NCBI GenBank assembly: GCA_029553505.1
Contig: JAKPKY010000165.1
Location: 36,595-100,594, forward strand
Direction of reading: 5' to 3'
DNA: 64,000 nucleotides
DNA from: Planctomycetota bacterium
GTDB taxonomy: Bacteria; Planctomycetota; Phycisphaerae; SM23-33
Positions 1,747 to 5,196 of this stretch are shown in pieces. The notes beneath the pieces are model-generated. The model was not told the origin of the DNA. It did not search any database and was given only the letters and a program-made list of their open reading frames with translations. Both the position numbers and the translations under genes were made by a program. Each line of letters begins with the position of its first letter. Within the stretch, counting starts at the first letter, position 1.

Positions 1747-2328
1747 ATGGCCTTCACATTGCAAATCGGAGACGAGGCGCCGGACTTCCAACTGCCCGGC
1801 GTGGACGGAAAGACATACCGGCTGGCCGACTTCGCCCACGCGAAGGTGCTGGTCGTGTTCTTCACCTGCAACCACTGCCCGTTCGTGGTCGGCTCGGAGC
1901 GGCGCATCGCCGCGCTGCACGACCGGTTCCACCCGAAGGGCGTCGATTGGGTGGGCATCAACTCCAACGAGACGGAGAAACACCCCACCGACAGTTTCGA
2001 GCACATGAAGAAGCGCGCGAAGGAAGCGGGCCTGCGCTACCCCTACCTGCGGGACGATTCGCAGGACGTCGCGCGGGCCTACGGCGCGCTGCGCACGCCG
2101 CATTTCTTCGTCTTCGACGCGGACCGGCGCCTGCGATACACCGGCCGGCTGGACGACAGCCCCCGCGCGGAAGGCAAGCAGACCACCCACGAGCTTTGCG
2201 ACGCCCTGGAGGCGCTGCTGGCCGGGCAAACCCCGCCGACGCCCGTGACCAATCCCATCGGCTGCAACGTCAAGTGGAAGGGCCAGCCCGAACACTGGAT
2301 GCCCCCCGAGGCATGCGACCTGGTGTAA
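1747..2328 (+). CDS. thioredoxin-fold thiol-disulfide oxidoreductase / peroxiredoxin (AhpC-TSA/redoxin family)
   Basis: 193-aa ORF with CNHCPF (CxxC) motif in a thioredoxin-fold context; divergent from the fucI-like gene. Confidence 0.7.
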   Translation: MAFTLQIGDEAPDFQLPGVDGKTYRLADFAHAKVLVVFFTCNHCPFVVGSERRIAALHDRFHPKGVDWVGINSNETEKHPTDSFEHMKKRAKEAGLRYPYLRDDSQDVARAYGALRTPHFFVFDADRRLRYTGRLDDSPRAEGKQTTHELCDALEALLAGQTPPTPVTNPIGCNVKWKGQPEHWMPPEACDLV

Positions 2329-2451
2329 AATTTGGAGACATAAGGGAGTGTAAGTTTTAATCTTACATCGGTAAGCTACTTCAATAGAAGGATATACGTT
2401 TTGGACTGGCAAGTGTTGCATAAACATTTTTACCCATAGGGTCAATAGCCC

Positions 2452-2480
2452 TTGACAATTATTTTCTCACAACCTACAAT
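2452..2480 (+). promoter_or_regulatory. near-consensus sigma-70 promoter (TTGACA-17 nt-TACAAT) upstream of the HigB-like toxin gene
   Basis: TTGACA at about 2452-2457, 17-nt spacer, TACAAT at about 2475-2480, then GGGAAG RBS and GTG start at 2496. Confidence 0.6.
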
Positions 2481-2495
2481 TGGGGAGACTGGGAA

Positions 2496-2792
2496 GTGAA
2501 GCACATCTTCGCCAGTAAAAAGTTGCAACGTCTGTATTCGGAAAAGGATTATTCCGCAGGATATTCCCACGAGATTGTCAAGGCATTCCGGAAACGGGTG
2601 CAACAGATCGCGGCGGCGAGAGATGAACGCGATCTCTATGCTCTCAAATCACTGCATTTTGAAAAGTTAAAAGGCTCCAGGTCGCATCAACGATCCATCC
2701 GCCTCGACAAGCAGTACCGTTTGATCCTTGAAATCCAACGGGACGCTGGCGGCAACGTGATGATACTCATCGACATCGAGGATTATCACTAG
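2496..2792 (+). CDS. higB: HigB-family (RelE/ParE superfamily) type II toxin, 'plasmid maintenance system killer' type
   Basis: 98 aa, GTG start. MKHIFASKKLQRL...ILIDIEDYH is typical of HigB-like killer proteins (about 95 aa, conserved basic residues, C-terminal ...DYH). Lies in a low-GC islet. Confidence 0.7.
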   Translation: MKHIFASKKLQRLYSEKDYSAGYSHEIVKAFRKRVQQIAAARDERDLYALKSLHFEKLKGSRSHQRSIRLDKQYRLILEIQRDAGGNVMILIDIEDYH

Positions 2793-2808
2793 GTCAGGAA
2801 GAAAGTAC

Positions 2809-3957
2809 ATGACAGACAATGCCACATCTCCAGCCGAGGTGTTTCCTCCCGGAGAGTTCATCCGCGAAGAGCTTGAAGCTCGCGGCTGGACCCAGGAAGA
2901 CCTTTCGCGAATCCTCGACAGGCCCATCAAGACGGTCAATCAGATCATCACCGCCAAGAAGCAAATCACTCCTGATACGGCGGTCGAGTTGAGCCAGGCG
3001 TTCGGAACAAGCGCGGAATTTTGGCTGAACCTCGAATCTGCCTATCGTTTGTCTTTGGCCCGACAGGACAAAAGCGATGTTGGGCGAAGGGCAGTAATCT
3101 ATTCTTTCGCTCCTGTAAAAGAAATGTTCTCGCGAGGTTGGATTACAGCGGACCCCAAAACAGAGCTTGGCAATCTGGAACGCGAACTCTGCAAATTCTA
3201 TTCGGTGGAATCCTTGGCGCAAAAACCCCCCCTTCGCTATGCAGCCCGTTCTTCCGCCATGGGACATGTTGCCATCCCCGCACAGGTGGCTTGGGTAACG
3301 CGCGTGAAACACCTTGCTTCCCGTATGCGGGCATGCAAGTATTCCGAAAAAGCACTTCGAGAGCAGATTCCGCGGATTCTTGGGCTTTCCCGCCTGGAGG
3401 GGCAGGTGGCGAAGCTTCCGGTCGTTCTCTCCGAGTTGGGAGTGCGCCTGGTTTTCGTGCCGCATCTTTCGCAGACGAAAATAGACGGCGCCGCCTTGTG
3501 GCTGGATGACGATTCGCCTGTTGTTGGACTTTCGCTCCGGCACGATAGGATTGACAATTTCTGGTTCACCTTGATGCACGAACTAGCTCATATTGTATGT
3601 CGCCACTCAAAAAACGAGGCCATTGTTGATAACCAGCTTGTCGGCGCAGACAGATGTGATCCTGAGGATATGGCAACCATCGAAAAAGAAGCGGATCAGT
3701 TGGCAAGAAAGTGGCTTGTGCCGGAAAAGGAATTAAAGAGCTTTATCGCCGGGACTGCGCCGTATTTTAGCCGGCAACGCATCGAAGAATTTTCCGAAAA
3801 ACTGGGGATACATCCCGGGATCGTAGAGGGGCGTTTACAATTTGAGCAACAAGTGCCCTACTCTCATTTGCGAGGTTTACTCACTCCCGTGCGTCGGTTC
3901 ATTGTAAATGGCGGGCTACTTGACCAGTTGCCTTCCTCTTTAACCAGCGCAGCTTGA
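2809..3957 (+). CDS. HigA-like XRE-family HTH antitoxin fused to an ImmA/IrrE (COG2856/DUF955) zinc-metallopeptidase domain
   Basis: 382 aa. The N-terminus has the HigA-like HTH segment (GWTQEDLSRILDRPIKTVNQII). The C-terminal half carries the HEXXH motif (LMHELAHIV) followed by a conserved EKEADQLA motif, as in ImmA/IrrE peptidases. Lies 17 nt after higB, same strand. Confidence 0.65.
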   Translation: MTDNATSPAEVFPPGEFIREELEARGWTQEDLSRILDRPIKTVNQIITAKKQITPDTAVELSQAFGTSAEFWLNLESAYRLSLARQDKSDVGRRAVIYSFAPVKEMFSRGWITADPKTELGNLERELCKFYSVESLAQKPPLRYAARSSAMGHVAIPAQVAWVTRVKHLASRMRACKYSEKALREQIPRILGLSRLEGQVAKLPVVLSELGVRLVFVPHLSQTKIDGAALWLDDDSPVVGLSLRHDRIDNFWFTLMHELAHIVCRHSKNEAIVDNQLVGADRCDPEDMATIEKEADQLARKWLVPEKELKSFIAGTAPYFSRQRIEEFSEKLGIHPGIVEGRLQFEQQVPYSHLRGLLTPVRRFIVNGGLLDQLPSSLTSAA

Positions 3958-3995
3958 TTCCGTATTTATGTTTTCGCATTGCCAGCCCCTGTTCC

Positions 3996-4024
3996 TTGAC
4001 AGGTTGGCGGCGCGAGCGTATAGG
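3996..4024 (+). promoter_or_regulatory. putative sigma-70 promoter for galK (TTGACA-17 nt-TATAGG), near-leaderless
   Basis: TTGACA at about 3996-4001 and TATAGG at about 4019-4024; galK ATG at 4033, so only a very short leader if this is used. Confidence 0.4.
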
Positions 4025-4032
4025 TTCCGGCC

Positions 4033-5196
4033 ATGAATGAGACCCTAGAGCCATTGCGGAAGCGTTTTGCGGAGCTGTACGGGCGAGCGCCGGCAGGGGC
4101 GGTCCGCGCGCCGGGGCGCGTGAACCTCATCGGCGAGCACACCGATTACAACGACGGATTCGTGCTGCCGATCGCCATCGAGAAGCGGACGGCCGCGGTG
4201 TACGCGCCGGGCGCGGGGCGGCGGGTGCGGCTGGCGTCGGTCCAGCAGCCTGGCCTGGACGCCGTGATCGACCTGGACGGGGCAATCGCCAAGGGCGAGC
4301 CGAAGTGGGCCAACTACTGCCGGGGCGTGGCGGCCGGGCTGGCGGCGCGGGGCCTGAAACTCGCCGCCTGCGACGTGCTGTTCGACAGCGACGTGCCCAT
4401 CGGCGGCGGGCTGAGCAGTTCGGCCTCGCTGGAGGTGGCCACGGCGCTGGCGCTGCTGGGCAGCGCGGGGTTGTCCGGCGCGGTGCCGCCGTACGAGCTG
4501 GCCAAGCTCTGCCAGAAGGCCGAGCACGACTACGCGGGCACGCCCTGCGGCATCATGGACCAGGCGATCAGCGTGATGGGACAGGCCGGGCACGCCCTGC
4601 TGCTGGACTGCCGCGACGGGGCGGTGCGCCAGGTCCCGTTCGACGATCCGGACGTGGTGCTGCTGGTGGCCGACACGCAGGTCAAGCACGACCTGACGGA
4701 CGGCGGATACGCCGCGCGGCGCGCGCAGTGCCACAGCGCGGCGGCCAAGCTGGGCGCCGTGAGCCTGCGCGAGGTCGATGGGTCGGCGGTGGCTGCGGCA
4801 GGGGCGGCCGGGAAACTCGACGCCAAGGAAGTCATGCGGGCGCGGCACGTCGTCGGGGAGATCGAGCGAACGGTCCAGGCCGTCGCGGCGCTGGAGGCGC
4901 ACGACTACGCGCGGTTCGGCGAGTTGATGGTCGGCTCGCACGAGTCGCTGCGGGACGACTACGAGGTCAGTTGCGAGGAGCTGGACGCGATCGTCGAGCT
5001 GGCGCTGGGGCAGCGCGGGGTGTTCGGGGCGCGGATGACCGGCGGCGGGTTCGGCGGGTGCGCCATCGTGCTGGTGGAGGCGGCGCGGGCGGATGCGACG
5101 GGCGAAGCCGTCCGCGAAGGCTTCGTGAAACGTTTCGGGCGGCGCTGCCCGGTCTTCGCCACGCACGCCGCAGCCGGCGCGAGCCCGATCGGCTGA
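4033..5196 (+). CDS. galK: galactokinase (GHMP kinase)
   Basis: 387 aa. Classic GalK signature GRVNLIGEHTDYNDGFVLPIAI near the N-terminus, GHMP motif PIGGGLSSSASLEVA, and C-terminal GGGFGGC. Confidence 0.9.
   Translation: MNETLEPLRKRFAELYGRAPAGAVRAPGRVNLIGEHTDYNDGFVLPIAIEKRTAAVYAPGAGRRVRLASVQQPGLDAVIDLDGAIAKGEPKWANYCRGVAAGLAARGLKLAACDVLFDSDVPIGGGLSSSASLEVATALALLGSAGLSGAVPPYELAKLCQKAEHDYAGTPCGIMDQAISVMGQAGHALLLDCRDGAVRQVPFDDPDVVLLVADTQVKHDLTDGGYAARRAQCHSAAAKLGAVSLREVDGSAVAAAGAAGKLDAKEVMRARHVVGEIERTVQAVAALEAHDYARFGELMVGSHESLRDDYEVSCEELDAIVELALGQRGVFGARMTGGGFGGCAIVLVEAARADATGEAVREGFVKRFGRRCPVFATHAAAGASPIG

Follow-up and report, generated by a model that had tools for sequence, protein, structure and literature searches.

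What is a toxin gene of the HigB type doing between two housekeeping genes of a planctomycete, and why should its partner, which looks like an antitoxin, carry a peptidase of its own? These questions are raised by a stretch of 64,000 nucleotides from Planctomycetota bacterium (assembly GCA_029553505.1, contig JAKPKY010000165.1, positions 36,595 to 100,594 of the forward strand), here called the window. In it, an insertion of low guanine-plus-cytosine (GC) content at positions 2329-3995, to which no strand is assigned, reaches from the stop codon of a redoxin gene to the promoter-like site of galK. As the first-pass annotation of this DNA had stated, and as the map of open reading frames (ORFs) bears out, the insertion contains only two genes, which lie on the same strand: gene A, encoding a HigB-type protein of 98 amino acids (aa), and then gene B, encoding a protein of 382 aa.

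A and B make up a chromosomal two-gene operon, in a member of the Phycisphaerales, of the class that pairs a RelE-family toxin with an Xre-COG2856 fusion protein. We think it rather probable that the HigA part of B neutralises the HigB-like protein A and that the peptidase part of B acts as the trigger. Modules of this type have already been published and stand in defence-system databases, and NCBI annotates this very pair as killer protein plus HigA. The kind is a known one, since the pairing was predicted in 2009 and a relative, PD-lambda-2, was tested in E. coli in 2022. What is newly described here is a conserved palindrome, TTNAC-N7-GTNAA, found family-wide before the operon.

The two proteins

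Gene A (2496-2792, + strand, GTG start) encodes a predicted HigB/GraT-type toxin of the RelE superfamily. Its placement in the HigB family, proposed from the sequence letters, held up in a search with Pfam PF05015 (HigB-like_toxin), which A matches at 43.3 bits against a gathering cutoff of 27. Two further matches are to phrog_3066, described as "toxin of TA system", at 6.5e-12, and to GraT, a HigB-family toxin of solved structure (PDB 6f8s_B; 9e-4). The protein is identical to an NCBI entry, HAU37039.1, annotated as "plasmid maintenance system killer protein". The AlphaFold2 (AF2) model of A, built from the single sequence, is of moderate confidence, with a predicted local distance difference test (pLDDT) of 71.5. 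When this model was compared with the PDB by Foldseek, the 11 best matches were all P. vulgaris HigB, at template modelling (TM) scores of about 0.6.

In P. vulgaris HigB, the residues critical for activity are His54, Asp90, Tyr91, and His92 (PMC5027501). In an alignment with this protein, whose sequence was confirmed against 4mct_B, the C-terminal D96-Y97-H98 of A falls on Asp90-Tyr91-His92. The column of His54 is occupied in A by Glu56, as it is in GraT, and A has a His54 of its own two residues upstream. Glu56 is nearly invariant among 19 close homologues of A, and Arg69 and Arg75 are invariant in the A of the window and its closest relatives.

Gene B (2809-3957, + strand, ATG start) encodes a HigA-type helix-turn-helix (HTH) fused to a zinc peptidase of the M78/COG2856 (ImmA/IrrE-type) family. 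The HigA-like HTH domain is encoded by positions 2842-3078 (about residues 12-90) and the M78 peptidase core by positions 3436-3750 (residues 210-314). Within the core, positions 3577-3591 encode the HEXXH motif (H257-H261) and positions 3682-3684 encode E292, predicted to be the third zinc ligand; all of these are on the + strand. Both halves had been named in the first-pass annotation, and the profile searches agree with it: B scores 37.7 bits with HTH_3 (cutoff 23) over residues 18-71, 40 bits with Peptidase_M78 (PF06114; cutoff 22; 4e-10) over residues 210-314, and 60.5 bits with the NCBIfam HigA equivalog TIGR02607 (cutoff 47.7). Its closest NCBI annotation is HAU37038.1, a protein of a Phycisphaerales metagenome-assembled genome (MAG) with 96% identity that is named "addiction module antidote protein, HigA family". 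At 382 aa, against 94-138 aa for the solved HigA chains, the partner is oversized for a canonical HigA, just as had been remarked.

The peptidase half appears intact. H257, E258, and H261 are invariant across 52 homologues of B, and nearly so is E292-x-x-A295-D296, the motif that usually supplies the downstream ligand in COG2856 proteins. An AF2 model of B built with the alignment of these homologues has a pLDDT of 90.5 and a predicted TM score (pTM) of 0.80. Its C-terminal half gives a weak structural match to CapP (7t5t), a protease of the cyclic-oligonucleotide-based anti-phage signalling system (CBASS). The HTH part matches HigA/GraA in structure and also resembles the DNA-binding domains of DdrO, ImmR, and CapH. 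The sequence relatives of B in the PDB cover the HigA part only.

Could the HigA part of B contact A in the way that an antitoxin contacts its toxin? The residues of GraA that contact GraT are E13, E18, N72, I9, I14, F19, L63, F69, and L73 (PMC6393540). They correspond in B to E16, E21, N74, F12, F17, L22, F65, F71, and L75, respectively, and several of these positions are nearly invariant in the family.

Promoter and operator

Upstream of A there is a sigma-70-type promoter-like site on the + strand, with TTGACA at 2452-2457, a spacer of 17 nt and TACAAT at 2475-2480, matching the consensus at 11 of 12 positions. The first-pass annotation had called this promoter unusually strong for the genome. 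The site is present and is the sole one scoring at least 11/12 on either strand of the window; its strength is judged from the consensus match only. The same arrangement, TTGACA and a -10 element 17 nt apart, is kept at the homologous loci L259, L178, and L175.

A palindromic operator-like site, TTTACCC-ATA-GGGTCAA (2429-2445, + strand), has its end 6 bp ahead of the -35 hexamer. The 64 kb contain no other match to TTNACCCNNNGGGTNAA when up to one mismatch is allowed (0.03 expected). In the family at large the palindrome takes the form TT[T/C/A]AC..-N3-..GT[A/G/T]AA, that is, TTNAC-N7-GTNAA, and stands upstream of the HigB-like gene in most loci. A score of 10/12 or better against TTNACCCNNNGGGTNAA is reached in 30 of the 52 upstream regions, but in only 25 of 1820 200-bp windows drawn at random from these loci. 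It is found at positions 625-641 of L259 and also at L178, L175, L176, L172, L173, L194, and others, so that it is spread over several phyla as well as prophages. The layout in L259 (TTTACCTTTTGGGTTAA, 6 nt, TTGACA, 17 nt, TATAGT) is the same as in the window. In the enteric-type prophage copies, the palindrome lies over the interval from -35 to -10; in the clade to which the window belongs, it precedes the -35 element by 6 bp.

The operator of HigA in P. aeruginosa is TTAAC/GTTAA (PMC6987408), and the half-sites of the family palindrome resemble it. Because the palindrome is conserved family-wide and its half-sites are like those of a HigA operator, there is good indirect evidence that the HTH of B is a sequence-specific autoregulator, which we infer to bind DNA here.

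Another repeated sequence touches the same region. The 8-mer TTGACAAT has five copies in the window, where 0.44 would be expected, and three of the five lie within the insertion, at 2452-2459 (+ strand), 2574-2581 (- strand), and 3551-3558 (+ strand). There is a perfect 10-nt inverted repeat, 2450-2459 / 2574-2583, by which one TTGACAAT copy pairs with the -35 region.

Downstream of the promoter, the order is toxin first, as is typical of higBA, and only 16 nt separate A from B. The possible starts of A are weak (GTG/TTG); B has an ATG and, 7 nt before it, a putative Shine-Dalgarno-like AGGAAG (2796-2801, + strand), as read from the sequence. A minus-strand ORF of 261 aa (2794-3579), antisense to B, was rejected as most likely spurious, because B has domain matches and thousands of homologues.

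A widespread family and its third gene

The family of B is large. The scored candidates include full-length relatives in at least 3777 clusters when grouped at 90% identity; grouping at 50% identity gives 949 clusters or more (E<=1e-30). Nearly all members are 350-390 aa long. Of the records with relatives, 73 are plasmids, from cyanobacteria, proteobacteria, actinobacteria, Deinococcus, and Bacteroidota, 6 are phages, and at least 110 are IMG/VR contigs. On plasmids, phages, and chromosomes of several phyla, the A-B pair is the conserved core.

Profiles for A, B, and a third gene were run over 91 loci. The HExxH of B is kept in all 91, and a recognisable HigB-like gene stands directly upstream of B in 52. 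Directly downstream of B, 39 loci have a conserved gene for a protein of about 160 aa, which we call C*, as at L172 (4123-4608), L173 (4129-4614), and L176 (4144-4644). C* is 35-64% identical among a Paraburkholderia plasmid, the Achromobacter phage CF418P1, and a metagenome contig, and among the 40 closest loci on viral contigs (L179-L218) it comes directly after B in 36. It had no significant assignment in Pfam, PADLOC, or PHROG, and the PD-Lambda-2_C model did not match it. C* is absent after B in the window and in L007, L009, L171, L174, L175, L178, and L259, and no C* homologue was found anywhere in the 64-kb window. At L177 (958-2118), P0079, a close homologue of B, is an orphan, with no HigB-like gene upstream and about 240 bp to the previous gene.

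The HigB-like partners nearest to that of the window almost all end in (I/V)EDYH. In a prophage subclade, L194-L208 and L214, in which gene A lies at about 2700-3000 of each locus, the D-Y-H C-terminus has been lost, and B keeps its HExxH. This loss may be related to the neutraliser role that has been reported for PD-lambda-2A.

Comparison with known systems

Fusions of COG2856 and Xre domains encoded in operons with RelE and PIN toxins were described by Makarova, Wolf, and Koonin in 2009, who proposed a three-component toxin-antitoxin (TA) system that is controlled when its Xre part is proteolysed (PMC2701414). The window fits their class: HTH_3 and an M78 HEXXH domain are fused in B, and a RelE-superfamily toxin gene lies 16 nt upstream behind a single promoter-like site. 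Their class was known by genomic association and had no mechanism; to it, the window adds a conserved operator and a long residence in a chromosome.

The relative for which there are experiments is PD-lambda-2 of E. coli ECOR42 (Vassallo et al. 2022), which is composed of a HigB-like protein, a HigA-like Xre HTH-peptidase fusion, and a P4-related third component, and which in E. coli gives anti-phage defence in the manner of a TA-like abortive-infection system (PMC9519451). The likeness lies in gene order, in the tight spacing, in the HigB-like first gene, and in the HigA-HTH-peptidase second gene. B matches the PADLOC model PD-Lambda-2_B at 1.6e-55 (187 bits), with residues 8-355 aligned on positions 54-384 of the 402 of the profile. 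The comparison of A and of the third gene with PD-lambda-2 was made through the PADLOC models. In this comparison, A had no match to PD-Lambda-2_A, even at E<=1, and none of the tested partners or third genes of the family matched PD-Lambda-2_A or PD-Lambda-2_C. When a prophage homologue was compared with E. coli genomes by blastn, no match appeared. There are differences of setting as well. PD-lambda-2 has its third gene C, which is P4 beta-like, whereas in the window galK begins 76 bp after B and there is no third gene; and the present host is one of the Planctomycetota, with the pair at a housekeeping site and not in a prophage or defence island. Because the A model does not match and the third gene is missing, the pair of the window is, by the PADLOC definition, not PD-lambda-2; judged by its sequences, it is a two-gene relative of that system.

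With the plain HigBA/GraTA modules of P. vulgaris, P. aeruginosa, and P. putida, the pair shares the toxin-first order, the HigB fold and D-Y-H in A, and a HigA domain in the N-terminal 90 residues of B, where the GraT-contact residues are largely kept. It differs from them in that B has 382 aa and a peptidase, whereas their antitoxin is a single domain of about 100 aa, and in that the half-sites of the window operator are spaced by 7 nt and lie ahead of the -35 hexamer.

In the systems ImmA/ImmR, IrrE/DdrO, and CapP/CapH, an M78 protease cleaves an XRE repressor upon a stress cue. The analogy with modules of the ImmR/ImmA type, drawn in the first-pass annotation, is a sound one: ImmR/ImmA (of ICEBs1), DdrO/IrrE (of Deinococcus), and CapH/CapP (of CBASS) all combine, as B does, an XRE HTH with an M78/COG2856 HEXXH peptidase that has a downstream Glu, and B matches the PADLOC models capP (4.6e-08) and capH. 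In those systems, repressor and protease are separate proteins that control a mobile element, a DNA-repair regulon, or CBASS, whereas here they are one polypeptide that is paired with a HigB toxin; no second XRE gene was found in the insertion (ORF map). RosmerTA is also similar, in that RmrA is an "antitoxin" made of an HTH and an M78 peptidase in a defence TA pair. Membership in RosmerTA was considered and rejected: the RmrA matches of B are weak and partial (3.4e-07 to 3e-03, about 100 residues over the peptidase region), and the neighbouring gene is HigB-like, not RmrT.

A proposed mechanism

How might the two proteins work together? We propose that B, as a dimer, would bind the palindrome at 2429-2445 through its HigA HTH, making the operon autoregulated, and that its HigA domain would bind A and hold it away from the ribosome, in the way that GraA acts on GraT. 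On a cue from stress or phage, the fused M78 peptidase would then become active and cleave the HTH/antitoxin part of B, either in cis or between subunits. Cleavage of B would derepress the operon and free A, and free A would cleave ribosome-bound mRNA, leading to growth arrest. The domain content of the two proteins, the intact active-site motifs, the layout of the operon, the homology of B to PD-Lambda-2_B, the published abortive-infection behaviour of PD-lambda-2, the recurrence of the A-B core across phyla, the contact residues, the operator, and the constraint on these sequences are all consistent with such a scheme.

Several points weigh against this mechanism. The peptidase of B has no known cleavage site, signal, or substrate, and its trigger role is one that we infer. 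COG2856 proteins that stand alone proved inert on overexpression in S. pneumoniae and in E. coli (PMC4257102). Since the column of the catalytic His54 holds Glu56 in A, the activity of A is likely rather than proven. The palindrome lies at about -58 to -42, upstream of the -35 element and off the core promoter, and for this reason repression from it is not certain. The third gene of PD-lambda-2 and C* are both absent here; in PD-lambda-2, the third gene is required for defence (PMC9519451), and therefore neither the assignment of roles nor a defence function can be assumed for the pair. This bears on the reasonable suggestion in the first-pass annotation of an abortive-infection-type switch: such behaviour has been published for the related PD-lambda-2 (PMC9519451) and was foreseen in 2009 (PMC2701414), but it does not carry over by itself to a pair that is without the third gene.

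The most direct challenge to the roles that we assign also comes from PD-lambda-2, in which B was toxic alone and A rescued the cells (PMC9519451). Might the roles be reversed in the window? B would then be the growth-inhibiting effector, acting either as a peptidase or through its HTH on host promoters, and A would be its inhibitor, with the trigger releasing B. The homology of B to PD-Lambda-2_B over residues 8-355 is in line with this idea. So is the conservation within the family: because HExxH is kept in all 91 homologues examined while the C-terminus of A has been lost in one prophage subclade, the activity of B is the constant element. On the other hand, A of the window and of its closest relatives keeps (I/V)EDYH, Arg69/Arg75, and Glu56, for which a pure inhibitor would have no need. 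Moreover, since the PD-Lambda-2_A model misses the A of the window, the A of E. coli may be another sort of protein. We therefore regard reversed roles as a serious but unlikely alternative. The two assignments are not exclusive, and mutual neutralisation is possible: because A keeps its catalytic C-terminus here and has lost it in one prophage subclade, the roles may differ between subfamilies, or A and B may neutralise each other.

History of the insertion

When did the pair arrive between the redoxin gene and galK? The first-pass annotation had taken the low GC content as a sign of horizontal acquisition. The observation itself holds: the segment 2329-3985 has a GC content of 50.3%, against 68.6% for the whole window. 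No 1650-bp window of the 64 kb falls lower (mean 0.686, standard deviation 0.036), and the segment stands about 5 standard deviations under the mean. In windows of 200 bp, the GC content is 0.42-0.585 over 2301-4000 and 0.64-0.78 on both sides.

Comparison of neighbourhoods gives a more precise picture. A metagenome relative, L094, has the gene order of the window, namely a glycosyltransferase, a VitK2 biosynthesis gene, a fucose isomerase (minus strand), redoxin, and galK, with proteins 43-74% identical to their counterparts; in it, the redoxin gene and galK are about 110 bp apart, without A or B, and the TTGACA-containing promoter-like site of galK is present as in the window. By this comparison, the pair is an insertion relative to L094. 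L259 has the same order as the window, redoxin (69% identical), A (60%), B (61%), and galK (62%), and in L007, A (62%) and B (52%) are directly upstream of galK (66%). The B proteins of the window and L259 are sisters in 93% of 200 neighbour-joining bootstraps, with L007 unresolved as the next sister, and the nearest non-self homologue of B is 61% identical. A scan with GalK found no close relative among 185,579 GTDB species representatives, the best identity being 52-54%, and so gave no help in dating the insertion.

No integrase or transposase genes were found at the insertion (ORF map), and there are no convincing terminal repeats, the flanking direct and inverted repeats having the look of chance. 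Because L259 shares the order, A and B are as diverged as their flanks, the B proteins are sisters, and mobility genes are missing, the most economical reading of these sequences is a single old insertion at redoxin-galK that was inherited vertically, not a recent acquisition. The claim of horizontal acquisition thus stands in so far as the pair was inserted; the event appears to be old.

The same evidence bears on the idea that the pair came in recently as the addiction module of a mobile element, a plain cassette for post-segregational killing. The strong anomaly of composition speaks for it, as do the occurrence of relatives on so many plasmid records and viral contigs and a mosaic divergence between strains, described below, that suggests recombination within the module. 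But L259 has the same insertion site and promoter layout, with a B protein that is a sister to that of the window and with A and B diverged like the flanking genes. Integrase, transposase, tRNA genes, and terminal repeats are all wanting, and the nearest homologue is as distant as stated above. We judge a recent addiction module to be highly improbable.

If the insertion is old, its composition has been slow to change. The GC content at third codon positions (GC3) of A and B in the window is 0.61 and 0.56, respectively, with 0.90-0.92 in the flanking genes. The corresponding values are 0.41 and 0.56 in L259 (flanks 0.76-0.83), 0.75 and 0.72 in L007 (flanks 0.96), 0.45 and 0.37 in L009 (flanks 0.72), and 0.75 and 0.72 in L175 (flanks 0.88). 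In all five hosts compared, then, the GC3 of A and B is 0.13-0.42 under that of the flanking genes, even where vertical inheritance appears to have been long, as in the window and L259.

A pair kept for long at one place invites another explanation, that it has been domesticated as a regulator, a stress switch like ImmR/ImmA or IrrE/DdrO that serves itself, and perhaps galK by read-through, and does no killing. It has stayed at one housekeeping locus in lineages that share no more than 62-69% identity in the flanking proteins, and this would suit such a regulator, as would the absence of mobility genes, tRNA, flanking repeats, and an accessory defence gene. No terminator-like site was found between B and galK, and COG2856 proteins can be non-toxic. 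Yet A is full-length and has the HigB catalytic residues, and its GC3 and that of B are still 0.3 under the flanks. Since the palindrome occurs once in 64 kb, there is no sign of a regulon, and galK has a promoter-like site of its own that is shared with L094, which is without the pair. A purely regulatory pair is in our estimation improbable.

Variation between strains

The window was compared with L261 (GCA_003485185.1), a Phycisphaerales MAG about 95.4% identical to it. Against a background of 4-6 differences per 100 nt, there are 2 differences in the 400 nt of 2401-2800, which take in the promoter and A, with none in A itself, and the segment 3501-4000 has 1 in 500 nt; 21 differences are concentrated in 3101-3200. 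Counted codon by codon, all 15 amino-acid changes in B fall in residues 96-205; in the HTH domain there are 15 changes, every one of them synonymous. We read this pattern as mosaic recombination together with a middle region of B that is under relaxed constraint. The variable tract is rich in synonymous as well as non-synonymous changes, and this is why we favour relaxed constraint or an imported tract; positive selection on this region was considered and rejected for the same reason, with a rough omega of 0.26-0.35.

Neighbouring genes

The redoxin gene (1747-2328, + strand; Pfam Redoxin/AhpC-TSA) has its stop codon at 2326-2328, and galK (4033-5196, + strand; Pfam galactokinase) begins 76 bp after the stop codon of B. 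The promoter-like site of galK has TTGACA at 3996-4001, 17 nt, and TATAGG at 4019-4024 (+ strand), with the -10 element ending 8 nt before the ATG. In L094, the region upstream of galK (4960-4998) has TTGACA, 17 nt, and TACTTT, 7 nt before the ATG. Since promoter-like sites end 7-8 nt from the ATG in both the window and L094, this suggests that the galK mRNA of their lineage is leaderless or nearly so. The predicted leader of gene A is likewise short, at about 8-10 nt. No tRNA genes and no Rfam families at gathering score were found anywhere in the 64-kb window.

What the pair may mean for the family

The picture of such modules is not changed by the new data, and the value of the locus is for that reason incremental. 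It is, nonetheless, a clean minimal example, with two genes, one promoter, and one operator, of a large and mechanistically unsolved family whose only tested member, PD-lambda-2, behaves unexpectedly. Three testable handles are offered by the family: the operator motif, the split between HigB-like partners that have kept D-Y-H and those that have lost it, and the unannotated third gene in most prophage copies. In addition, the analysis turns what had been called an islet into an old insertion with a persistent deficit in GC3.

It is tempting to go further and to suppose that the two-gene form, without a third gene, is a self-contained and long-domesticated sensor of stress or phage, in which the M78 peptidase would sense the cue and cleave its own HigA part. 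We offer this as a speculation that we think unlikely. If it were true, the GC3 deficit of about 0.3, kept at the redoxin-galK site from a time before lineages with flanking proteins of only 62-69% identity parted, would imply selection for AT-rich coding sequence or repeated replacement of alleles, and not recent transfer, and a single operator code, TTNAC-N7-GTNAA, would hold across phyla for the whole HigA-M78 family.

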